Shown here one piece after another: positions 3,476 through 19,098 of a stretch of 20,000 bases of DNA (the first letter of the stretch is position 1; each line of letters starts with the position of its first letter). The position numbers were made by a program, and so were the translations under genes. Source of the stretch: an uncultured virus (IMG/VR IMGVR_UViG_3300024999_000085) (Duplodnaviria; Heunggongvirae; Uroviricota; Caudoviricetes); the IMG/VR virus record IMGVR_UViG_3300024999_000085; one strand, 5' to 3'. Below the pieces are notes generated by a model. It saw only the letters and a program-made list of their open reading frames with translations, was not told where the DNA came from and searched no databases.

Positions 3476-3699
3476 AATAAGTTATCTCCTTTTAATTTTA
3501 AATTTAGTTTAATTGATTAGATTATTATTTTCTTTCTCCTACATATTATTTATACAATTCTTACATTAAAACTATTGACATTTAGCAAAATATTTATATC
3601 TATTTTTCTGCCCTCCTTTCTGATTTAATTTTTTGATTTGTTGTTGATGAATTGATAGATTTTTGATAGATTGTATATATAATAGTGTCGGTAAACTTT

Positions 3700-3728
3700 A
3701 TTATAACATTTATGAGGTGGAATGTAAA
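3700..3728 (-). promoter_or_regulatory. Sigma-A promoter for the 3475/3173 gene pair
   Basis: Minus strand TTTACA-17 bp-TATAAT with an extended -10 TG. Confidence 0.7.
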
Positions 3729-3852
3729 GAGTTATTTTGTGGGAATTTATGGTAGTTTGGATTATGGGTTGCTGTTATGGGATTATATGGAAGGTGGTTT
3801 TTGGTGATCTGTTATAGAGGATTTGGATATATTTAGGGATTTAAAAATGGAC

Positions 3853-4496: not shown

Positions 4497-5657
4497 TTAA
4501 TCTGTTATAATTTTTCTTATTTTGGAATACTCAATAAATTCAGTATAACCTTTTTCTGAGGCTATTTCAACTAAGTTATTCCAAGTTAATTTTAATGTAT
4601 CTTGTAAACTAATGGTAGGTATCAACTCAGTAAGTAAATGTGTAAATTGTAAAGATGCTTTGAAAGTTTCAATTTTTAACGTACCGCGAAAAATTCTAAT
4701 TTCTACAGTATCATCATTTTTTAAGTTAACGGCAAAATATCGGCCCTCAGCCTTAGCCTTTTTACAGATCTCAGCAGGTTCTTCCTCTGTTGATAAATTG
4801 TTATAACGGTTACAATATTCTACAATTTGACTATTTTTTCTTCTGGAAAACTTTTTAATGTTATCCCAATTAGTCTCAAAAAATAATAATAGTTTAGCAA
4901 TATTTAAATCCTGCTCATGTTCTGATTTGCCAAAAGCTAACTTGCTAATGTGTATATGCATCCCACAAGTGCCTAAGTCATGGCTAGAATAGCCTTTTGT
5001 ATCGCATTCATCCAATATATATTGCCATCCCATATTTTTCATATGGTAAGAATATGTACAAGGATGACTAACTAATTCCATACCGCGCTTAATTGAACCA
5101 TCTTTTTTAATGTAAAGGTATTTTTCATACTCGGTAAGGTCAGTCCCGTTGGCTTGATCATGAATTTCTAAAGCATGATCTTCCTTAGATTCATAACAAT
5201 CACGTTCCTGTTCTTCTGTTCTGTCAATTTCTAACTCTATTCCATAATATGTATTTGTTACTTCATTAGTCATAGAATGGAAATTTAAGGTTTCTGGTGT
5301 ATATTTATAGTCGTGAATAAAGGTTAGATTATTTTTAATGTCATTTTGACAACTACAACAAACTGGTTCATTCTGCCATATTTCAGTGTTATCACGTTCT
5401 ACAATATTTTCGCATTCGGAACAAATTATTAAATCTAATTCCTCAATGCAGTTATGACAAGCATAATTATTATGTCCTTCTGTTATATTACTTTCGTGAT
5501 ACTCAGTATTACAAAAACTACAAGTTTTAATTTCCTGTGCGCACTCATCGCAATAATATTCATCCTCTGTAAAATTTCCATCTCGTTGGTACATATTGTC
5601 AGATATATCAGTAAAACCACAATGGAAACAACTTACTAATTCTTCCTGTTCTGGCAT
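4497..5657 (-). CDS. Putative amidoligase (COOH-NH2 ligase, Amidoligase_2-like) with N-terminal multi-CxxC zinc-binding region
   Basis: Motifs YGIELEID, KKDGSI..GMELVSHP, TCGMHIHIS, RYFAVN and TVEIRIFRGTL. Six CxxC pairs in the first ~105 aa. AAGGAGG RBS. Confidence 0.88.
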   Translation of the reverse strand: MPEQEELVSCFHCGFTDISDNMYQRDGNFTEDEYYCDECAQEIKTCSFCNTEYHESNITEGHNNYACHNCIEELDLIICSECENIVERDNTEIWQNEPVCCSCQNDIKNNLTFIHDYKYTPETLNFHSMTNEVTNTYYGIELEIDRTEEQERDCYESKEDHALEIHDQANGTDLTEYEKYLYIKKDGSIKRGMELVSHPCTYSYHMKNMGWQYILDECDTKGYSSHDLGTCGMHIHISKLAFGKSEHEQDLNIAKLLLFFETNWDNIKKFSRRKNSQIVEYCNRYNNLSTEEEPAEICKKAKAEGRYFAVNLKNDDTVEIRIFRGTLKIETFKASLQFTHLLTELIPTISLQDTLKLTWNNLVEIASEKGYTEFIEYSKIRKIITD

Positions 5658-6484: not shown

Positions 6485-6566
6485 TTAAATCCTTTATAAA
6501 ATCCCTGTTATCAAGTGTTATACTGTTATTACTATTCAGGGACTTTATAAGGGATTTGATACCCTT
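6485..6566 (-). promoter_or_regulatory. Intergenic long hairpin 3 (RNase III-like processing stem)
   Basis: Arms at 6487-6507 and 6537-6557. The minus-strand RNA pairs with one C-A mismatch and one G-U pair. Confidence 0.7.
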
Positions 6567-6568
6567 AT

Positions 6569-6892
6569 TTACTGCCATATTCCTTCTACTGCTTCTTGAA
6601 TCAACTCTTTAGCTGCTTTTAAGGTTTTTACTTCACCCATGATTACTTTATAACTACTATAAATACAATCTAGTGAAATTATACCGTATTCCTGTACATA
6701 ATCGTTAGCTCTTTTATACATCATGGGAATGTATTTATTATTTTGTTTTAAAATGATATACTCAGGTACTTCTATGTTAAAAACTTCATCCCCTATTACG
6801 CATACTTCACGAACAATTATTTTAGTGTTACTAGTATATGTTATTCCAAAGGTTAAAGGTTGTTTAGTCATTGTTACTGTCGTTTTGGTCAT
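6569..6892 (-). CDS. Hypothetical protein, 107 aa; first gene of the leftward block
   Basis: AGGAGGT RBS with a promoter directly upstream. Confidence 0.8.
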   Translation of the reverse strand: MTKTTVTMTKQPLTFGITYTSNTKIIVREVCVIGDEVFNIEVPEYIILKQNNKYIPMMYKRANDYVQEYGIISLDCIYSSYKVIMGEVKTLKAAKELIQEAVEGIWQ

Positions 6893-6937
6893 TGTGTTGA
6901 CCTCCTATTAAAATTATATAGATCTTCCCTTCCCTAA

Positions 6938-6966
6938 AGTATAACAGAATGTAGATTGATTGTATA
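6938..6966 (-). promoter_or_regulatory. Sigma-A-type promoter heading the 6892-3872 operon
   Basis: Minus strand TATACA-17 bp-TATACT with an extended -10 TG. Confidence 0.55.
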
Positions 6967-7389
6967 TAGATTTTAGGTAAATATTTTAAGAAAATTATAT
7001 TTATTTTCTATTAGTTGTATCGTGTTAATTAGTGCTGAATAGGTTTATATATTGTTAGGATTGGATTTAAGGGTAGTTTGTTTGATTTAGGTATTAGATT
7101 ACCTATTTTATTTTTAAAGTGTTTATGTGGGGTTTATATGAAGGTGTACTAGTTTATTAATACAGTGTGTCAGTGATGGTGTAAATAAGTATATGATAGT
7201 TTAATAATATTGTTTTAATTGGATTGGTGTATAAATTGCAGGAATAGGCTTTATTCGTGTTAGGATTAGATATAAGATGTTTTATTATGATTTAGGTATA
7301 ATATGAAGTGTTAGAGATGAATTAAGATTGTTTGGTATTTGATTATGTGTTTATGTATTGGGTATCTAGTAGCAAGGAATAAATATAGT

Positions 7390-7594
7390 GGTAATAGGTT
7401 GGTATTGTGTATTGATAATATAGATAGTATATCAGATAGCATATAGGTATTATATATTTAGTAGTATGATATGTTAAAAGTGGTAACAAGGTTAGTAATA
7501 TTGTTAGTAGTATTGTGGTAATATGATACTGATATAAACGGTAGCATAGTATGGTAGCATAGAAGTAATATTATATAGTGTGATATGGTAGCAT
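7390..7594 (+). repeat. Cluster 2 of GGTARCAW-like octamers
   Basis: GGTAGCAT at 7540, 7553 and 7587, GGTAACAA at 7482, GGTAATAT at 7517. Shares ATAAACGGTA(G/T)CAT with cluster 1. Confidence 0.65.
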
Positions 7595-7717
7595 TGTATA
7601 GTATATAGTATATGTATATAGATAGTATAGCTTTGTTTGGAGTGTTGTATAGTTGTTAGTGTATTTATATGTGTTAGTGATGCTTAGTGTTAGCTGTAGC
7701 TGTGGTGGTATGTATAG

Positions 7718-7765
7718 ATAGATTGTATAGAGGTTATAGAGGTTATAGATTGTATAGAGGTTATA
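7718..7765 (+). repeat. 21-bp direct repeat
   Basis: ATAGATTGTATAGAGGTTATA at 7718-7738 and 7745-7765. Confidence 0.85.
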
Positions 7766-8169
7766 TTATAGGTGTATTAGGTAGATAGTACACTTATAAA
7801 TATGTGGTGTATAGTGTTAGATAGTATAGATATAGATATTATAGATATATTGCTAGTATGTTTATGTATTTTATAGATAGTATTATAATTTGTTTATGGT
7901 ATTGGTATTATTTTATATGTGGTTTGTAATCCCAATTTTGATGTATAATTTATATGTAAAGTGGGGAGTTGATGGTTAAATTGTGAGGAATTTAGGGTTA
8001 AAGTGGGGAAAATATCTATATCGTAATATTGAGATATATGGATATATAGATATATAGATAAGAAATGTTCTTTGTTAGGAAATTTTACTAGATAGGAATG
8101 ATTCTTATTTAGGATTTATTCTTAGGTGTGATTTATTATTATTTAATATGGCTGGTTGATGGTTGGTTA

Positions 8170-8350
8170 GATAGTTAATATGATTAATAGTTAAGCAGGT
8201 TAATAGTTAACTATGTAAAGTATTTTTTTAAAGTAGATAGTTTGATTATACAATATAGTTAAGTATGTTAATTGTTTAAATAGTTAATTATTAAGTAGGT
8301 AAATAGTTAAGGTAATAAATAGTTAAGTAGGTTAAGTATATTAATAGTTC
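8170..8350 (+). repeat. Array of ATAGTTAA motifs (operator-like)
   Basis: About seven ATAGTTAA copies, several forming imperfect palindromes such as ATAGTTAAGTAGGTTAAGTAT and ATAGTTAACTATGTAAAGTAT. Confidence 0.7.
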
Positions 8351-8398
8351 AACAAAAAATTTCTTGTTATAACTTTCGATGGACTGACAAGGCAAAAT

Positions 8399-8413
8399 AC
8401 TTGACAGTCAAGT
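8399..8413. promoter_or_regulatory. Perfect 7-1-7 palindrome abutting parS
   Basis: ACTTGAC-A-GTCAAGT. Cognate protein unknown. Confidence 0.6.
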
Positions 8414-8428
8414 GTTCCACGTGGAACA
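8413..8428. promoter_or_regulatory. parS: parS site (ParB/Spo0J binding)
   Basis: Perfect palindrome TGTTCCACGTGGAACA matching the bacterial chromosomal parS consensus. Two tandem half-site-like TGTTCCACA copies follow at 8449-8466. Confidence 0.9.
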
Positions 8429-8801
8429 TAAAAATTATAATTATAGTTTGTTCCACATGTTCCACAGGTTTTATATTTTTCTATAGGTACGATAAATTTT
8501 ATTAATCCGGTGGTCATAGCTTCACCTGTGGCGATACATCTATAGTTTATAGTTTACCTATACTATCTATTCATCTATCAAAATAATCCGATATATAACC
8601 TCTATTCTATTTCTTAGGTTATATTATACCTAATTAAATTTTACTCTTCAAATAGAGGCTATATTTCAATCAAAATTTAGCGTTCTAATTGAGCTTTAAT
8701 ATGTTTAATTAATTAACACCAGTCAAACAGACTATTCACCTACACATCATACACAACAAACAACCTAACAATTCCCTATAATACCACAATTTACCATAAT
8801 A

Positions 8802-8829
8802 ACTTCGCATAAGGTTTATTATGTGGAGA
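8802..8829 (+). other. dif/Xer-like recombination site
   Basis: ACTTCGCATAA-GGTTTA-TTATGTGGAGA. The 11-6-11 layout has the CGCATAA and TTATGT inner arms of dif, but the outer right arm diverges. Confidence 0.6.
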
Positions 8830-8874
8830 GATTCAAAGGAGATGGGGGCAGGACGGGGCATGGTTTACAAAAAT

Positions 8875-8893
8875 GATAGTGATTATCATTATC
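8875..8893. promoter_or_regulatory. Fur box
   Basis: GATAGTGATTATCATTATC matches the classical GATAATGATAATCATTATC at 17 of 19 positions. Confidence 0.75.
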
Positions 8894-9359
8894 ATATGCC
8901 ACCACATCTATTATCCACTTAGACCTTAGTAGTAAAACGATGCGACTCTCGCATATTAATCGTATAACCATACAAATAATAAATATTTCTATAATATATA
9001 ATCCTTATTCCAATCTCACTCCATTCTTATACAATACTATCCCAATTATAATTAAATCTACCGTATTCATTCTTCTTACTCTCTTCTATCTCCTTCCATG
9101 AATATCTTCTAAACACACTAATATCAATACGTTTATATCTTATCACATCCTATCACAAATAACCAATATTATTAATAATACATCAATTAAATCATACTCA
9201 AATCTTAATCAAATAACAACAAAATTATAAATATCGAATACTAATTTAATAATAAATTTTAAATTAATTTATAGTTATAAATTTGCTTAAAAAACATTAT
9301 ATAATGTACCTTATTATTAATTTTAAACCTTTCAAATAATATAACTAAATAAAATTACA

Positions 9360-9608
9360 TTAGTTAAATTTTTTAAAATTAACATTCTTATTCACATTTT
9401 CACCAAATAACATCCAACCTCTAACCCATATCCTTTCTATCTCATATATCCTCTCAATTTCTTCTCTAACAATAAATTCACTTAAAAAATCAAATAAGTC
9501 ATCTTTATCTTTTAATAATTCTTCATACTTAGTATCAATCACACAACTAAATTCTTTCAACAATATATTACAAAAATGTTCTCCTATATAAACTGTATAT
9601 ATTTTCAT
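9360..9608 (-). CDS. Hypothetical protein, 82 aa
   Basis: Open frame co-oriented with its neighbours; weak RBS. Confidence 0.55.
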   Translation of the reverse strand: MKIYTVYIGEHFCNILLKEFSCVIDTKYEELLKDKDDLFDFLSEFIVREEIERIYEIERIWVRGWMLFGENVNKNVNFKKFN

Positions 9609-9663
9609 TTTTTATATTTCTCATTTAATTTTATTATATTTTACTTTAGTTTTATATATTAAT

Positions 9664-9972
9664 CTACATATTCAATATCTCATCTATACTTTTATATTCA
9701 TAATCAAAATAAATCAATACAATTTCTATTCCCTTCTCCAAAACAAAATTATAATTAATCCATACTTCCAATATTTCATTATTAATAACAATCTCTAATG
9801 ATGCACCTTCTTTTATAAACTTATTACCTTCCCTCACATCATTTATATACTCTGCAAAATCAACAATATATTCTATACAATTATTAAAATCAATTTCACT
9901 TATCTCATAACCAACTCTACTGCTCAAATAATTTTTCATTTTTGATTTATTTAATAGTCTATAATTTATCAT
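9664..9972 (-). CDS. Hypothetical acidic protein, 102 aa
   Basis: AAGGAGTG RBS at normal spacing. Confidence 0.75.
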   Translation of the reverse strand: MINYRLLNKSKMKNYLSSRVGYEISEIDFNNCIEYIVDFAEYINDVREGNKFIKEGASLEIVINNEILEVWINYNFVLEKGIEIVLIYFDYEYKSIDEILNM

Positions 9973-10175
9973 ATTAATTTCACTCCTTATACTTTATTAT
10001 ATTTTTAATTTGTTGATATTAATCTACCCATAATATTAAACTTTATTCTTTAATTTATTCTTTGAATTTATTTACATTATAAAAACCAACCAACTTATCA
10101 AAATACAGTTTATCTACCTTAAATGCCTATTATACCTATTTTTATTAACATTAACATTCTAATTTAAACTTTAAC

Positions 10176-10204
10176 AAAAAATAATCTCCCATTTAGAGAG
10201 ATTA
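10176..10204 (-). terminator. Intrinsic terminator after ORF 10215-10535
   Basis: Minus strand TAATCTCTC-TAAAT-GGGAGATTA followed by TTTTTT. Confidence 0.7.
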
Positions 10205-10214
10205 AATAATTCAT

Positions 10215-10535
10215 CTATTTACAATGTATTCTTATAGAGGAGGTTGAATCCATTCTTCCATTACTATTCCTATCTCTATTTCCATTATCCCTATACACAT
10301 ATCCAAAATACCACAATAAACTTCCACTAAATACACCTAACCCATAACAAATAAAACTTATATATCTAAATAAATCACTTAATCCTAATATCCCAATTCC
10401 ATTCCTACTTCCCATATCTCCTATCATTAATCCACTTATAGAGAATAAAATTAAACATATTATCGCTGATCCATACATTATATTTTTCACATTAACATCA
10501 ATACTTGTCTTACTTACACTTTCTATATTCTCCAT
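10215..10535 (-). CDS. Small membrane protein with two predicted TM helices, 106 aa
   Basis: Two hydrophobic stretches and AAAGGA RBS. Confidence 0.7.
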   Translation of the reverse strand: MENIESVSKTSIDVNVKNIMYGSAIICLILFSISGLMIGDMGSRNGIGILGLSDLFRYISFICYGLGVFSGSLLWYFGYVYRDNGNRDRNSNGRMDSTSSIRIHCK

Positions 10536-11073
10536 TTAAATTTATCCTTTCTATTACTATTCTATTTATTGTTTTATCTTGTATTTATCTTGTCCATTAA
10601 ATTTTAATCTATGCACATAATAATAAATATTTTTATTATTTCAATCAACTATCTAATTAATATTTTAATAACTTAATAATATAATTATTTGCCTAATTAT
10701 TTATCTTTCTATTTAATCATATATTTATCTAATTAACTATTCACGCAATAAATAATCTAATCAATCAACTAGCCATATGGGGCATATTAAACAATTTAAC
10801 AATCTACCCATCCCACCTATTACTTCACTCCCATCAAATCCAACCTAAAAAACTATACCACAGAAGTTTTCATACTTCTAACTTCTTACTCCTGAATCAC
10901 CTGATAAGTAATTAATAGTATTGGACAAACTAATTTATATCTTCTACAATATATATCCTTATATATATCCTAACTCATATTTTCTATCATATTGTATGAC
11001 ATATTGTACTATTTCATAATATATCTATACAACAATATTATAATGTACAACCAATAAATTTACAAAAAAAATA

Positions 11074-11814
11074 TCACAATCCTAAATATAATTTTATCTC
11101 ATCAACAGTTTTAACTATAAATTTAATTCCTAATTTCTTCTTTACACCATTATCAATATAATCATATTTGATATTATCTATCTCTACACTTCTTAAAACC
11201 TTCAACTTCTTATTCTCACTATTGCACACAATCAATATATTAGGGAATCTCTTAACTCTATCACACCAATATTCATTTAAATACAATTTATTTTTAAATA
11301 TATCATTATAATTAATAACTTTCATAAATTTATTATTGCTCTCAACTTTATCACTCTCAATAATATAATACTTATATTCATTTGTTACATAGTTAATAAA
11401 TCCTATAATACCGTCTGGTCTTTTACCACATTCCATAACATACTCTATCTCGATATCATTAAACTTATAATACTTATAGTTAATACTCACATATCTCAAC
11501 AAATAAATAAATCCCCAATTTCTATTTATATCATGTGAAATAAACCTATTATTCTTATACTTTTTATTTGTAAAATAAATATTACACTCATTTATATCTA
11601 ATCTAATATTATTAATTTTCCCTTTACCTTTCAATATCCTCAATCTCTCCCTACACTTAACTATTCCATATTTTATTGAAGAAAAAAACAACAAATAAAT
11701 TTGTAATGTTGTCAATACTCCAAACTCCTCTATTATATCAATTATACACTTATCTCGGTAATAACCTTTTTGTCTCGTTGTCATTGATCTGAAATTGAAT
11801 AAATGGGTCAACAT
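11074..11814 (-). CDS. Replication-relaxation (Replic_Relax-like) protein: winged HTH plus PD-(D/E)xK-like nuclease
   Basis: Motifs GVLTTLQIYLLFF...RERLRIL, ISHDI, RPDGII and YIIESD. Overlaps the 3' end of an FtsK gene, the usual pairing for this family. Confidence 0.8.
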   Translation of the reverse strand: MLTHLFNFRSMTTRQKGYYRDKCIIDIIEEFGVLTTLQIYLLFFSSIKYGIVKCRERLRILKGKGKINNIRLDINECNIYFTNKKYKNNRFISHDINRNWGFIYLLRYVSINYKYYKFNDIEIEYVMECGKRPDGIIGFINYVTNEYKYYIIESDKVESNNKFMKVINYNDIFKNKLYLNEYWCDRVKRFPNILIVCNSENKKLKVLRSVEIDNIKYDYIDNGVKKKLGIKFIVKTVDEIKLYLGL

Positions 11815-13108
11815 TTAGATCATCACCTTTATTGTAAAAATAACTTGCTTTATTTACATTATCACATCTATCTAATTTCTTATCAAACATTACTAATCTT
11901 CTAATTGCCTCTTTTTGTTCTAATAACATTGCTTGCAATTCCATTTGATTAGAACCATATTGAAATATCATTCTACCTTTAATATTCGGCAAATAATAAG
12001 CATCTGTATTCCCTAATACAGTCATACTAGTACCATAATTTACAGTTTTAAAACTAATTGCACATGGGAAATTTGATTTTATTTCCATAGGAATTAATTT
12101 ATCAGAAGGTCTTTGCATTGCTATAATTAAATGTATTCCAGTCTTAGCACTTATCATACCTAAATCTGCACATATATTTTGTAATCTTTGTCTTCTACTT
12201 TTTGTTACTTTGTCATCACTTTTTCTAGGTGAAGTAAAAGCAAATTCATCAATGACTAATACAATATAATTCATTTTATTATTAGGATTTTTTTCATTAT
12301 ATTCAATAAGATTTACACAATTATTTTGAACAAGAAAATATCTTCTTCTTTCAACTTCTTGCATCAAGCACTCTAAAATAATTTCTGCGGTATCTAAATT
12401 ATATCCAAATACAATATGGTCTTTTAAGTGTACAAAATCAGTCATTGCTAAATCTGTTACAAATAATTTAACATTATTATTTTGCATTATGGCATCACAG
12501 ATTCCAGTTAATAAAATACTCTTGCCCGATCTAGTCACGCCTCCAATAATAATATGTGGTACTATTGCCAAATCAACAATTATAGGCATACCAGCAACAC
12601 TAACACCTATAGGAATCGGTATGCTTTTATCCATATATTCAGCATAATTAAAATTATATCTATATAATTCAGGTACAACACCTTTAATAACTTCAACCAT
12701 TAATAATCCTCTTCTTTTTTCTATATTAACATGTGCTATTATAGAATCTGCAAAATAGTTTTTTCTATCAATAATATATTTAAAATTTAAACCATAAGGC
12801 AATTTAAACATTACTTGATAATGAATATCACTTTTCTTAGTTGTTGCTATATGATAAGGATATTCACCTCTATTATTATGACAATTAGTTTGTATAAACA
12901 CATTCTCTATTTCTGCTGGTATATTTCTTGACTTACGTGTTCTAATTAATTTCTTAATTGAAGTTTTTAAATCCTCTGGTTTTTGAACTTTAAGTGGATT
13001 GTAACCTAATTTTAAATCCCATAAATAACTTTTAAAACTTTCTTTTAAATCAGATTTATACTTATTCCAATTTTCTTTAATATCTACTTTATCTTTTTTG
13101 CCTTCCAT
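11750..13108 (-). CDS. FtsK/SpoIIIE-family ATPase (DNA translocase or coupling protein); likely start MEGKK at 13108
   Basis: PHIIIGGVTRSGKS (Walker A), IVLVIDEFA (Walker B), GIHLIIAMQRP, LGNTDAYYLPNIKGR. AAGGAG RBS before the ATG at 13108. Confidence 0.92.
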   Translation of the reverse strand: MEGKKDKVDIKENWNKYKSDLKESFKSYLWDLKLGYNPLKVQKPEDLKTSIKKLIRTRKSRNIPAEIENVFIQTNCHNNRGEYPYHIATTKKSDIHYQVMFKLPYGLNFKYIIDRKNYFADSIIAHVNIEKRRGLLMVEVIKGVVPELYRYNFNYAEYMDKSIPIPIGVSVAGMPIIVDLAIVPHIIIGGVTRSGKSILLTGICDAIMQNNNVKLFVTDLAMTDFVHLKDHIVFGYNLDTAEIILECLMQEVERRRYFLVQNNCVNLIEYNEKNPNNKMNYIVLVIDEFAFTSPRKSDDKVTKSRRQRLQNICADLGMISAKTGIHLIIAMQRPSDKLIPMEIKSNFPCAISFKTVNYGTSMTVLGNTDAYYLPNIKGRMIFQYGSNQMELQAMLLEQKEAIRRLVMFDKKLDRCDNVNKASYFYNKGDDLNVDPFIQFQINDNETKRLLPR

Positions 13109-13152
13109 AATAAACTCCTTTCTAAATTTTATAGAATATAAATATAATTGTG

Positions 13153-13181
13153 TTGACTTTGGTAAACAAATATGATATAAT
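13153..13181 (+). promoter_or_regulatory. Sigma-A promoter of HNH cassette 1
   Basis: TTGACT-17 bp-TATAAT with an extended -10 TG. Confidence 0.8.
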
Positions 13182-13215
13182 ACAAATAAAAACAATATTA
13201 AGGAGGAAAATTTTA

Positions 13216-14353: not shown

Positions 14354-15073
14354 TTACCACTTAAATAATCTTCCATTCTTTGGTTTAGTAATATAATTCT
14401 TAAATCCTTTAACTAAATCAATAACTTTACTACTAATTTTTTTACTAGTATCATTTTCAATATATTTAATAACTCCATCAATAATTTTCTCATAGCATTT
14501 TTCATCGATGTCACTCATTCTACTTGAACCTATATCACGTTTGATAACTACTTTACTACCATTATTTTCAATAAAAATATCAATACTTCCTGGTGTATAA
14601 TCATCAGTTATTTTAATATTTTCATTAAATTTTTCTTCTTTTTTATTAATATTCTCCCTCTTATTTATGTCGTCTTTATTAATTATTTCCTCTTTTTTAT
14701 TGATATTATTACTAATATTATGATTTTTTTGCTCATTATACTGTTTATTTTCTCCATACTGTTTATTATCATTTATTTCCTTTTTATCAATATTCTCTTT
14801 ATACTCAGTATATTCCTTATTCTCATTATAATTTTTATTCTCATTATAAGTTTTTTCACTACTATTATTACCATTTTCAGCATTAGCATCAACACTAACA
14901 ATTAAAGGTAATTTTCTATCCTTGATCATTAATTCACCATAAAATTTTCCATTATTATAATTATAAATTTTTGCATCAATGTTATCACTTTTGAACCATA
15001 AACTATTCATACCTAACATAACAAATAATGCCATTGCACCTATAATAACTTTATTGACTATGATAGTTTGCAT
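14354..15073 (-). CDS. Membrane-anchored or secreted protein with low-complexity N/E/K linker, 239 aa
   Basis: N-terminal hydrophobic helix, central YNENK/NKKEE repeats and GAGGTG RBS. Confidence 0.75.
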   Translation of the reverse strand: MQTIIVNKVIIGAMALFVMLGMNSLWFKSDNIDAKIYNYNNGKFYGELMIKDRKLPLIVSVDANAENGNNSSEKTYNENKNYNENKEYTEYKENIDKKEINDNKQYGENKQYNEQKNHNISNNINKKEEIINKDDINKRENINKKEEKFNENIKITDDYTPGSIDIFIENNGSKVVIKRDIGSSRMSDIDEKCYEKIIDGVIKYIENDTSKKISSKVIDLVKGFKNYITKPKNGRLFKW

Positions 15074-15077
15074 ATTC

Positions 15078-15461
15078 TCACCTCGTCCTTGGATACTCAG
15101 TCAATTTTCTTAAAAATGAATTATCAGGTAGATTATCATCAATAATTTTATCAATTGGTTTTTGCACATTTTCTTTATCATATAATTTACTAGTAGGATC
15201 AACATATTTCTTAACATCATTGATTTTATCTTCTACATATTGTTGTTTCTTTTGTTCTTCTTCAACTAAAGGCAATACTTTCTCCATAACTGTACTTAAA
15301 CAAGAAAATACAACTATGACTATAATCATTTTTGACATATTTCTTTTACTTAATGCTCTGCAAATAAAATATACAAATGCACCAATTATAGTCATAATCA
15401 TCAATTGAGGTAGACATAAACATAAAATAGCAAATAATAATATTGGTATTATAAATAACAT
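15078..15461 (-). CDS. Small membrane protein, SpoIIIAC/AD-like helical hairpin plus soluble tail, 127 aa
   Basis: Pattern IIGAFVYFICRALSKRNMSKMIIVIVVFSCL (helix, basic turn, helix). AGGAGG RBS. Family call by eye. Confidence 0.6.
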   Translation of the reverse strand: MLFIIPILLFAILCLCLPQLMIMTIIGAFVYFICRALSKRNMSKMIIVIVVFSCLSTVMEKVLPLVEEEQKKQQYVEDKINDVKKYVDPTSKLYDKENVQKPIDKIIDDNLPDNSFLRKLTEYPRTR

Positions 15462-15473
15462 CTATATATCCTC

Positions 15474-15764
15474 CTAGAAATATGCTAATAATTTATTTAC
15501 TATTGTTAAACCTGAATCTATCATAATTGCAGTAGCAACAAATGTAGCAACTATACCTATTAATACAGCAAAATTTTGCTTACCTATTATTTTACATATT
15601 TGTTCTAATATAAAAGCAGCAATAGCACAACCACCAATTAGAAGTATAGCAAATCCAGGTTTACCTATACCAACAGTTTCTTTCATTAATCCATAAACAG
15701 TTATAGCATAACAAGGCATGGGGGTTAGGATAACAAGTAATAAAGTGTAGATTAATTTACTCAT
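15474..15764 (-). CDS. Membrane protein with signal peptide and SpoIIIAC-like C-terminal half, 96 aa
   Basis: IAAFILEQICKIIGKQNFAVLIGIVATFVA resembles the SpoIIIAC pattern (hydrophobic-QxLKxxGKEExA-hydrophobic). Signal-peptide-like N-terminus ending PCYA. Confidence 0.65.
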   Translation of the reverse strand: MSKLIYTLLLVILTPMPCYAITVYGLMKETVGIGKPGFAILLIGGCAIAAFILEQICKIIGKQNFAVLIGIVATFVATAIMIDSGLTIVNKLLAYF

Positions 15765-15977
15765 TTAAAAACCTCCTATTGGGAACATTTTAAATGTGTT
15801 TATTAATAATTCAGATAACATATATGATAAAACTATTAATCCAATTATTATTGTAGATATTTGAGTAATATATTTTTGTTTTTCTTCTATAGGAATTCTG
15901 TTTATTATTAAATTTGTAAATACCAATGCTAATATAAATGCTATAATTTGTAAAATATTAATACTAATACTATTCAT
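15765..15977 (-). CDS. SpoIIIAC-like two-TM protein, 70 aa
   Basis: Size and pattern (ILQIIAF...NLIINRIPIEEKQKYITQISTIIIGLIVL..MLSELL.NTFKMF) resemble SpoIIIAC. AGGAGGT RBS. Confidence 0.6.
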   Translation of the reverse strand: MNSISINILQIIAFILALVFTNLIINRIPIEEKQKYITQISTIIIGLIVLSYMLSELLINTFKMFPIGGF

Positions 15978-16000
15978 ATAAGTACCTCCTATAATAATTA

Positions 16001-16249
16001 TTAATTAGTAATAATTGATGCACAAAAAATTATAAATAATAAATATACTAATGTTAATATAAATTTTTCTTTTATTGTTGCACGGAATATCATTTGAATA
16101 ACTATTATTGCTGATGATATAAATACAAGATACTTATAAATCAATAAATAATAAATATTATTACTAGTTAAAATAGCTATAATAAAACCAATAAACAATG
16201 TTGCTAATAATATAATAGTGTATTTATATTTTCTAATAAAATTTAACAT
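16001..16249 (-). CDS. Small membrane protein with about three TM helices, 82 aa
   Basis: Three hydrophobic segments and AGGAGGT RBS. Confidence 0.7.
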   Translation of the reverse strand: MLNFIRKYKYTIILLATLFIGFIIAILTSNNIYYLLIYKYLVFISSAIIVIQMIFRATIKEKFILTLVYLLFIIFCASIITN

Positions 16250-17213: not shown

Positions 17214-18062
17214 ATGAAAAATAAAATTGAACAATATAAGAATTATTTAATTAACCAAGCAAAATCTAGTAATACAATATCATCTTATATATCAGACTTG
17301 AATCACTTCTTTACTTTGCATGATGAGATTAGTAGGGATTCTATTATTAGATATAAGGAAGAGATCAATGGTTTATCTTCTTCATCTATTAATAGGAAAT
17401 TGTCAAGTTTAAAATCGTTTAATGAATTTTTATTGATGTTGGGATTGGTTGATAGTGTAAAAATTATCAAAAGAGATTTTATTAAGGTGCAAAGTAAAGG
17501 AAATCCAACAGATGTAACTGAATCACAAGTATCTGAATTCTTAGATAAAGTGAATAATAAATATAGTTTGCATAGGGTAAGGAATATTGCTATTGTTTTT
17601 CTGATTGCTAATACAGGAATAAGAAGAGAAGAAATTACAAATTTAAAATTGAGGAACTTAGATTTAGTAAATGGTGAATTGAAGTTAATTGGTAAAGGTG
17701 ATAAGGAAAGAACTGTATTATTGAATGATATTGCAATAAAAGTTATTAAGGATTATTTGAAGATTAGAGAGAAACATAAATTTGCTAGTAGTCAATATAT
17801 ATTTTTAACAGAGAGAAGTGAGAAATTAAATAAGGATACAGTTAATTATATATTTAATAGTTATTGTGACGGTGATTGTAAGGTTGGAGTGCATAGTTTG
17901 AGACATTCATTTGCGAGTAGTGTAATAGAACAAGATGTTTTAACTTTACCTGAATTGCAGAATCAATTAGGCCACGCATCGCTCCAAGTCACTTCCATGT
18001 ATTGTCATGCAAGAAAAGAAAATATTAAGAAGAAAATTAATAATTTAAGGATTGGATTGTAG
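17214..18062 (+). CDS. Tyrosine recombinase, XerC/XerD-like, 282 aa
   Basis: Catalytic motifs TGIRREE (R), GKGDKER (K), HSLRH (HxxR) and QLGH...TSMY (H, Y). SAM-like N-terminus SSNTISSYISDL...SSINRKLSSLKSF. Confidence 0.95.
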   Translation: MKNKIEQYKNYLINQAKSSNTISSYISDLNHFFTLHDEISRDSIIRYKEEINGLSSSSINRKLSSLKSFNEFLLMLGLVDSVKIIKRDFIKVQSKGNPTDVTESQVSEFLDKVNNKYSLHRVRNIAIVFLIANTGIRREEITNLKLRNLDLVNGELKLIGKGDKERTVLLNDIAIKVIKDYLKIREKHKFASSQYIFLTERSEKLNKDTVNYIFNSYCDGDCKVGVHSLRHSFASSVIEQDVLTLPELQNQLGHASLQVTSMYCHARKENIKKKINNLRIGL

Positions 18063-18276: not shown

Positions 18277-19098
18277 TTGAGTGAAAAGAAATTTCAAGTA
18301 TGTGAAGTATGTGGTATTACAAGTGATGAAACAAGAGTCAATTTTAGAGAAAAATATAATATGATTTTATGTGCTAAACATAATGAACAATTAAAAAAAA
18401 ACATGGTACATTAAAACCAAATCTTGAAAGAAATAGAAGATTACATAATGAAATAAAAATTAGGTATTGTGAAGTTTGTGGTGTTTCTAATAAAGATACA
18501 GAAGTATATCATTATAAAAAATATAATATGACATTATGTAATAAACATATAAATCAAATGAATTTTTATGGTAAAATACAAAATAAAACAAGAAAGGAAT
18601 TAAATGATTATATTTTATATGATACACATGCAGAAATTATTTTATATGATGATAATAATTTAGAAAAAGCAAGAGCAATAATTGATTTAGAAGATGTTGA
18701 AAAATGCAAACCTTATAGATGGGGTATTAGTAATGGTTATATTAAAACAAATAAAAATAAATTACAAAATTTTATTTTAGATTATAAAGGTAAAATTGAT
18801 CACAAAAATAGAAATCCATTAGATAATAGAAAAAACAATTTAAGATATGCAACACATCAAGAAAATACTAGAAATATATCAAGGAGAAAAGATAATATGA
18901 GTGGTTTTACATATTACATGGGCAAATGATAAAAATAAATGGAGAGCAAGAATAAATATTGGTGATAATAATGTATTACATTTAGGTTATCATGAAAACA
19001 TAGATGATGCTATTATTGAAAGACTTAAAGCAGAAAAACAATACTTTGGTGAGTTTGCTCCACAACAACATTTATATGAACAATATGGAATTGTTTAA
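18277..19098 (+). pseudogene. Frameshifted zinc-finger/HNH/AP2 endonuclease
   Basis: One protein in three frames. From the TTG at 18277: CEVCG...LCAKH. After a shift in the A9 run (18393-18401): a second CEVCG...LCNKH, then IDHKNRNPLDNRKNNLR (HNH). After a second shift near 18912: ITW...NKWRARI...HLG...AEKQYFGEFAP (AP2). Confidence 0.8.

Follow-up and report, generated by a model that had tools for sequence, protein, structure and literature searches.

Introduction

Short direct terminal repeats are already known from phages of the SPbeta/c-st/Tsamsa group, as the available text of several papers documents (PMC3903500; PMC9703825; PMC13245101; PMC7685451; PMC8026635), and that of PMC4909266 is silent on what such a repeat contains. 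The repeats of c-st (404 bp), of Tsamsa and the Tyrovirus phages (284-285 bp), of Sundance (323 bp) and of Perkons (264 bp) are gene-poor and flanked by skewed composition, and each of them carries an end motif, described below, 38-39 nt inside the cut as well as an 11-6-11 site. For SPbeta itself, the genome opening has been mapped to the interval between yonP and yonR, at a block of ~250 bp, and was read as pac-type cutting with headful packaging; in the accessible part of that preprint, the presence of a pac pattern in this block is offered only as a speculation (Kohm et al., bioRxiv 10.1101/2021.11.22.469490). Likewise, a review of SPbeta describes its packaging as unresolved and, in the part available, sees no likeness to the pac of SPP1 (PMC8270828). 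The definition of SPbeta-like ends and their recircularization are stated to be open in both the review and the preprint.

Here, we describe a locus that resembles these systems, found in a 20-kb stretch of DNA from an uncultured virus, referred to as the window in the following. In a preliminary description, its gene-free region around positions 8020-8960 was taken for a platform of binding sites that recruits unrelated host proteins. As an organizing idea, this missed what is likely a genome-end repeat: we estimate a probability of roughly 80% that positions 8347-8908 represent a short direct terminal repeat, collapsed at the junction of both genome ends, of a large temperate siphovirus of the SPbeta/c-st/Tsamsa type. 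The terminal-repeat strategy and the presence of parS sites in phages are each already known. In the literature searched, which was mainly open-access and in part accessible as partial text, we found no description of the end motif, of a dif-like site within the repeat or of repressor boxes at the end, and the layout seems to be common to SPbeta and so far undescribed. For SPbeta, it provides an end motif, a predicted repeat of 251 bp and a candidate site of recombination, each of which can be put to the test in B. subtilis 168; moreover, the end motif can orient fragmentary metagenomic contigs of the SPbeta/c-st/Tsamsa group. The features of the locus are collected in Table 1.

Table 1. Features of the predicted genome-end region and associated genes in the window; a dot denotes features to which no strand is assigned.
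Feature	Position	Strand	Remarks
Predicted short direct terminal repeat	8347..8908 (~562 bp)	.	Collapsed to a single assembly copy; based on synteny with the c-st terminal repeat, end-motif spacing, far-end alignment and skew change
Far-end signal AATAGTT...TGTTATA...TCGA	8343..8379	+	Spans the predicted left edge; in the window and 13/18 relatives
Second variable operator-like slot	8380..8413	.	TGACAAG-type repeats including the 7-1-7 palindrome 8399-8413; other palindromes in relatives
Perfect 16-bp parS palindrome, predicted site for host ParB/Spo0J	8413..8428	.	Consensus as we take it to be; 17/18 relatives
parS-like half sites	8449..8466	.	At least one half site in 12/18 relatives
Candidate 11-6-11 Xer/lox-type recombination site	8802..8829	.	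Left arm resembles that of the B. subtilis dif; phage-type right arm
End motif CGGGG-N-TTTACA, candidate terminase recognition signal	8854..8869	+	38-39 nt inside the predicted cut; takes in the G-run 8844-8859
End slot between motif and predicted cut	8870..8908	.	Fur box in the window; swapped in relatives
G-rich, C-poor non-coding flank, genome start side	6900..8346	+	GC skew +0.75; harbors TAGGAAT repeats and, at 8125-8340, the ATAGTTAA array
C-rich flank at the opposite genome end; carries small ORFs on the minus strand	8909..11070	+	Contains, at 8940-8954 on the minus strand, a hairpin resembling a terminator, and the chance-level DnaA-like 9-mer (8911-8919)
FtsK/SpoIIIE-like ATPase (11750-13195) and downstream 246-aa gene	11074..13195	-	Order as CST193-CST194 of c-st, ahead of the terminal repeat
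XerA/XerD-like tyrosine recombinase	17214..18062	+	R, K, H-x-x-R, H and Y intact; candidate enzyme for the 8802 site

Virus group, relatives and host

The window encodes an amidoligase, an FtsK/SpoIIIE protein, HNH/AP2 nucleases and a tyrosine recombinase. Searches with its FtsK protein returned six viral loci at first and subsequently 37 metagenome and 11 viral loci. After leaving out seven that are cut within FtsK and five duplicates, 36 of these 48 loci were examined for the end motif, and 18 distinct relatives form the set to which the conservation counts refer; L267 and L277 were dropped from this set as copies of L255, and L237 may come from the same population as the window. Five related contigs (G001-G005; 52-143 kb, estimated as 40-71% complete) place the virus within a known group: their portal is closest to those of Sundance, SPbeta-like and Tsamsa-group phages, their YonO-type polymerase is 50-53% identical to those of SPbeta and D-1873, and they also carry a tape measure preceded by a recombinase and a SpoIIID-like gene. 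The portal, the polymerase and the recombinase ahead of the tape measure were seen in G002 and G003, which share FtsK (55-76%) and the window-encoded recombinase (83%) with the window; these three genes fall outside its 20 kb. CheckV estimates for the relatives suggest a virus of about 150-200 kb, and we infer a spore-forming member of the Bacillota as its host; an FtsK search of genome contigs found no relative among 263 candidates, and hence no host genome. A blastn comparison of positions 8000-9100 with named phages yielded nothing beyond short chance matches, in 13 records. The sequencing runs in which the sequence is best represented carry the label groundwater metagenome.

Some observations on these genes stand by themselves. 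A 95% FtsK relative (L239) lies on a 541-kb contig, which is either an integrated prophage or a much larger phage. Upstream of FtsK (14354-16249), there are small ORFs for membrane proteins with no family match above the cut-off, which may be part of a module with a role in transfer or linked to sporulation, along with the 246-aa gene and FtsK. Further along, at 18528-19098, an HNH-AP2 nuclease is split across two overlapping frames.

Conserved and chance motifs

Every motif of the preliminary description, including TAGGAAT-G-ATTCTTA (8093-8107) and the ATAGTTAA array, was recovered in place, and its statement that the window lacks parB, fur and dnaA was borne out: the 24 ORFs scanned against Pfam and PHROGs include none of these, nor parA. 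Rfam gave no matches in 6500-11500. Which motifs exceed chance was judged by dinucleotide shuffles of 8020-8960, with motifs that had been chosen after the fact and with Fur, parS, DnaA, LexA and Zur consensuses as we take them to be. No parS and no Fur box with at most one mismatch arose in 2000 shuffles, and a Fur box with at most two mismatches arose once; for CATAA-N6-TTATG, the core of the dif-like site, the count was 23 in 2000. By contrast, DnaA boxes with at most one mismatch appeared in 679 of the 2000 shuffles, and palindromes with 7-bp and 6-bp arms in 89 and 169 of 400, respectively.

The comparison with the 18 relatives follows the same line. The parS site, the Fur box and the dif-like site are retained while the spacers between them diverge, and in this respect the earlier notion of a gene-free, cis-acting module stands. 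Not so the DnaA box and the operator palindromes it included: the DnaA-like 9-mer TTATCCACT recurs in two relatives and the exact 8399 palindrome in one, and both kinds of motif are at chance level in the shuffles. Similarly, TAGGAATGATTCTTA is found in two relatives, and the core of the 8940-8954 palindrome, which like the 9-mer lies outside the predicted repeat, in seven. The parS, Fur and Xer-type sites are genuine features; the others are due to chance or specific to individual lineages.

Genome ends

The gene order provides a first link to a phage with an annotated repeat. In c-st, the 404-bp repeat follows FtsK and a partner gene at a distance of 3.9 kb, and the succession of FtsK, partner gene, small ORFs and repeat is common to c-st and the window, where the distance is 2.8 kb; the 246-aa partner of the window matches CST194 weakly (28% identity over 121 aa, E 7e-4).

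The right edge rests on the end motif, of which the 'G-run' noted earlier is a part. The pattern SGGGG-N2-5-KTTWCA was matched in 11 of 14 records, and in c-st, Tsamsa and Sundance it is confined to the two repeat copies, at 39, 38 and 38 nt from the mapped end, respectively. In an end-anchored alignment, TG(T/A)AA...CCCC falls at the same offset in the named phages and in the family of the window. An end model trained on six record ends gave its first rank to the end motif in SPbeta (64531), PMBT24, KKP_3916, E3 and G005, its second in G002-G004 and its third in G001 and the 20-kb window; when training records were left out in turn, Tsamsa and Sundance ranked first and Perkons was missed. The SPbeta hit is not independent, because the training records include BUCT083, a phage closely similar to SPbeta, and the KKP_3916 record stops 27 nt, not 38, past the motif. 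A stricter pattern found a single locus and another variant missed most of the named ends, whereas a loose one was unspecific, matching 10 of 10 records, and assigned no ends in LIBA6276, Lactococcus 949/WRP3, the staphylococcal phages, CB473P1 and TR-TP1.

Among the 36 loci examined, 22 possess the end motif, and the 14 without it had at most 3012 bases downstream. In 20 of the 22, the sequence starts with GAT at -38/-39; the remaining two have a second motif match, with GAT in L238 and, as in SPbeta, GCTAGG in the distant L282. The conservation of GAT led us to place the cut after 8908, which fixes the right edge of the predicted repeat to within 1 nt. Two other readings of this segment were set aside: as a KOPS/SRS element, the G-run has matches with one mismatch only, which are frequent elsewhere in the window, so that the end motif is preferred; and TTTACA as a -35 promoter element shows no excess and is not kept in relatives.

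The left edge is less certain. Perkons, Sundance and SPbeta have similar distances between TCG, TATAA and the end, and an alignment of the far-end signal with the far ends of these phages locates the left edge at 8347; the spacing in c-st, Tsamsa and Thrax1 does not conform. A skew change-point at offset 561 agrees with 8347; the method behind it recovered known repeat lengths to within 40 nt in just three of seven benchmarks. The skew itself flips sharply, from +0.78 on the left of the region to -0.8 on the right, and in the 11 genomes compared, the window included, it is positive before the cut in all and negative past the far edge in 10. One guess is that this skew comes from ends exposed as single strands. 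By the far-end signal, the repeats of the relatives measure about 490-890 bp. In runs X1 and X3, contig pieces covering 8342-8567 have depths of 60.3 and 16.1, as compared to 36.3 and 9.8 for 7187-7643, which at ~1.65-fold in both runs fits a doubled block; we do not count this as support, because the runs contain numerous strains and the depth of a contig does not measure copy number.

While the positions, order and conservation of these motifs are seen directly in the sequence, the process they suggest is a prediction. A terminase would cut after 8908, 38-39 nt from the GGGG-N-TTT(A/T)CA motif, and the TCG-TATAA signal would mark the other edge at 8347; we propose that the region is free of genes because it serves end processing. 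Compared to the named repeats, the one predicted here is longer, contains a parS, which is absent from the named repeats shown, and has GAT rather than GCTA at the cut. The counterpart in SPbeta lies at the opening between yonP and yonR, where 64531 marks the end motif and 64601 a palindrome of the 11-6-11 type, and the far-end signal gives a length of 251 bp.

Within the left flank, the ATAGTTAA array is a strain insert, absent from other strains in source-like runs, in which 8124 is joined to 8341. Three gaps further to the left (100-250, 1500-2000 and 3600-3850) are G-rich on the plus strand although the genes are on the minus strand, and the end-linked skew would therefore extend about 8-10 kb into the early region. 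The segment 8077-8099 (AGGAAAT-N12-GAAT) resembles a sigma-H promoter, going by what we take to be its consensus, and the TAGGAAT motif occurs in only two of the 18 relatives.

A candidate circularization site

Phage P1 circularizes its DNA by the action of Cre on loxP, a site that is doubled by terminal redundancy. With the predicted repeat at either end of the virion DNA, its 11-6-11 site would occur twice as well, in direct orientation. Such a site is found in the repeat of 17 of the 18 relatives, in two forms. The phage type (nine relatives) lies near the end motif and is fully palindromic in G003-G005. The host type (eight relatives) sits further in and has the right arm of the B. subtilis dif, as given in the accessible text of PMC3025954, with L280 one base off; its pattern occurs once in each of 44 prokaryote genome loci, mostly from Bacillota. 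The right arm of the window site differs from the B. subtilis arm at five of 11 bases. Beyond the relatives, the core of the site is present in both repeat copies of c-st and Tsamsa, as CATAA-N6-TTATG, and occurs close to the genome ends in Sundance, Perkons, BUCT083, SPbeta and PMBT24.

How far the site stands out depends on the measure. A palindrome score, devised after the sites had been seen, ranks the repeat site first in the window, G001-G005, PMBT24 and Sundance, among the top three in Perkons and SPbeta and tenth in Tsamsa; KKP_3916 and E3 have no passing site. With a matrix from three chromosomal dif sites, the window, G001 and PMBT24 have it in first place, Sundance in third and Tsamsa in twelfth, and it does not rank high in SPbeta, Perkons, KKP_3916, E3 and G002-G005; by this measure, it stands out in three of seven named phages (PMBT24, Sundance and Tsamsa) and one of five related contigs.

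We give even odds to the idea, suggested by this arrangement, that a tyrosine recombinase closes the injected DNA into a monomeric circle via the doubled 11-6-11 site and later resolves dimers. The palindromic type might be served by the phage's own recombinase and the host-dif type by host XerCD. For the dif-like site, the preliminary description was right in that the site is kept in relatives, but it may serve the Xer-like recombinase of the phage rather than the host. The likeness to P1 loxP-Cre and to XerCD-dif consists of a putative tyrosine-recombinase site that would be doubled, the 11-6-11 layout and an intact Xer-like enzyme nearby. Unlike loxP, the window site has the 28-bp geometry of dif instead of 13-8-13, and would be doubled by a predicted fixed short repeat and not by headful redundancy; among the relatives, the site type switches between phage palindrome and host dif. 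In the same phage group, the 11-6-11 'attP' reported after gp50 of the Tyrovirus phages has the same geometry, but, according to the available text, follows a recombinase gene in the tail cluster, whereas the window site lies inside the predicted terminal repeat (PMC9703825).

Two enzymes come into question. The window recombinase is 82-91% identical in G001-G005 and has no close homolog in the named phages; the other candidate, encoded ahead of the tape measure, has counterparts with 50-59% identity in SPbeta, E3 and Perkons. For the former, we compared the site arms with a segment that presumably reads DNA. Across 11 loci, a CGAAGT arm goes with K-D-T (four loci) and other arms with K-S-T (six), the exception being L251 with K-D-T but no CGAAGT. 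This covariation is a hint only, because three of the four CGAAGT loci are near-copies.

In the window recombinase, the residues between H-x-x-R and the catalytic tyrosine (about 230-266) are hypervariable, with mosaic blocks among the relatives. Additional sites were also seen: Sundance has a canonical host-type dif mid-genome (66811-66838) besides its repeat site, SPbeta has a strong 11-6-11 palindrome (10/11) far from its end (116449-116476), and L249, L252, L260, L266, L278 and L280 have a second, palindromic 11-6-11 site of CCCTT type, 33 bp ahead of the host-type dif.

Exchangeable slots as possible seats of host repressors

The last positions before the predicted cut differ among relatives in a modular manner. 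In the window, they hold the Fur box at 8875-8893, which matches 17 of 19 positions on the plus strand and 18 of 19 on the minus strand. Eight of the 18 relatives likewise have a Fur box (one to two mismatches), three a LexA-like box (one exact to the consensus as we take it to be, two with three mismatches) and seven an ATTACG...CGTAAT repeat, which as a Zur box would have six to eight mismatches and was rejected as such. The same slot holds a Fur box with one mismatch in Sundance, whose mapped end shows nearly the same cassette of G-run, TTTACA and Fur box, and an exact LexA-type box in Thrax1; seven of the nine named phages have neither. On an FtsK tree of 20 rows, the slot types are scattered as expected for exchange, with eight changes against a mean of 8.5 in shuffles.

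A Fur gene was found in none of 13 phage records, and the box would thus need the host protein. A Fur-regulated promoter is not apparent in the region either, with 14 promoter-like sites versus 14.5 in shuffles, and the 9/12 promoter match over the Fur box is lost in relatives with other slot types. Tentatively, a host stress repressor, here Fur, may occupy the terminal 38 bp, where it would protect the end or control its cutting, although we regard this as improbable on balance. Also doubtful is a wider generalization, namely a modular end cap across the SPbeta/c-st/Tsamsa group: here, the shared motif would set the cut, the Xer-type site would make circularization of the injected genome independent of homologous recombination, and the final 38 bp would accommodate, in exchangeable fashion, a host stress repressor, be it Fur, LexA or a third protein, whose binding shields the end or blocks the terminase. 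If true, genome maturation or establishment would be tied to the iron or DNA-damage state of the host with no promoter involved. A host repressor box fixed at the genome tip, swapped among relatives and also seen in the distantly related Sundance and Thrax1, would connect host stress with phage DNA ends in a way not reported so far. In L282 (on G007), about 1390-1720 past FtsK, the repeat combines Fur boxes with an array of ATTACG-type repeats.

Alternative explanations

The early proposal of an injection stop or a decoy, in which unrelated host proteins are titrated by the region or grip it, can draw on the Fur, LexA-like and parS sites, which are genuine and have no phage-encoded partner in most records, and on L282 and Sundance, which carry several boxes in the repeat. 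The injection-stop signal of phage T5 lies in a long terminal repeat and comprises DnaA boxes as well as repeats. Here, the DnaA boxes are not conserved (two of 18 relatives, at chance level), the contigs G002-G005 have a single strong Fur box each and G001 has two, which is little for titration, and the single sites at fixed offsets from the cut, which are not arrays of one site, point to end processing. The proposal thus fits poorly, and we consider it highly improbable. A maintenance locus of a plasmid prophage or a replication terminus, with parS and dif at a skew switch and no relation to virion ends, would account for the terminus-like flip from G-rich to C-rich and for the nature of parS and dif as maintenance sites; furthermore, c-st has been listed among circular plasmid prophages and has a Xer recombinase. 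Yet the skew is reversed only locally, over about 10 kb in G001, and neither the fixed 38-nt offset of the end motif nor its match to mapped ends would be explained, which renders this reading very unlikely as an alternative. A maintenance role can, however, hold alongside the terminal repeat.

The closest competitor concerns the mode of packaging. With a pac-type start and headful filling, the right edge would be a fixed first cut and the other end variable; the block would be no exact repeat, and the Xer site would act like loxP in P1 or only resolve dimers. The SPbeta coverage, with its precise ~250-bp block, has been read in this way (Kohm et al., bioRxiv 10.1101/2021.11.22.469490), and the far edge is the weaker of our two edge predictions. 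On the other hand, exact terminal repeats exist in Tsamsa (284 bp), Sundance (323 bp), Perkons (264 bp) and KKP_3916 (308 bp), repeats are annotated in c-st (404 bp) and Thrax1 (285 bp), and the far-end signal is conserved. We consider headful packaging unlikely.

parS sites and a possible role in segregation

A terminal repeat with a parS site may also offer a route to inheritance. In phi29, the host protein Spo0J acts on parS sites of the phage (PMC2731898), and the resemblance to the window lies in host-type parS sites in a spore-former phage without its own parB. As far as the available text goes, phi29 has five dispersed parS sites and 0A boxes, whereas in the family of the window, one parS is fixed in the end repeat and up to two more lie in the early region. 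By analogy, host ParB would load on the parS, and the circle would be segregated or caught in the forespore; we lean towards this view, which the presence of parS in 17 of the 18 relatives fits, and the hitch-hiking on host segregation raised at the outset is plausible. Among the 13 records, which include incomplete contigs, a single one has a ParB-like gene, and it is the one without a parS (G001/L239).

This gene (L134:1527-2684, on G001) could reflect a swap from host ParB to an own system. Between genes of the early region, at distances of 1-12 kb from the end, extra parS sites were observed at G002:73101, G004:48883 and 56803, G005:30203 and, in Perkons, at 5194.
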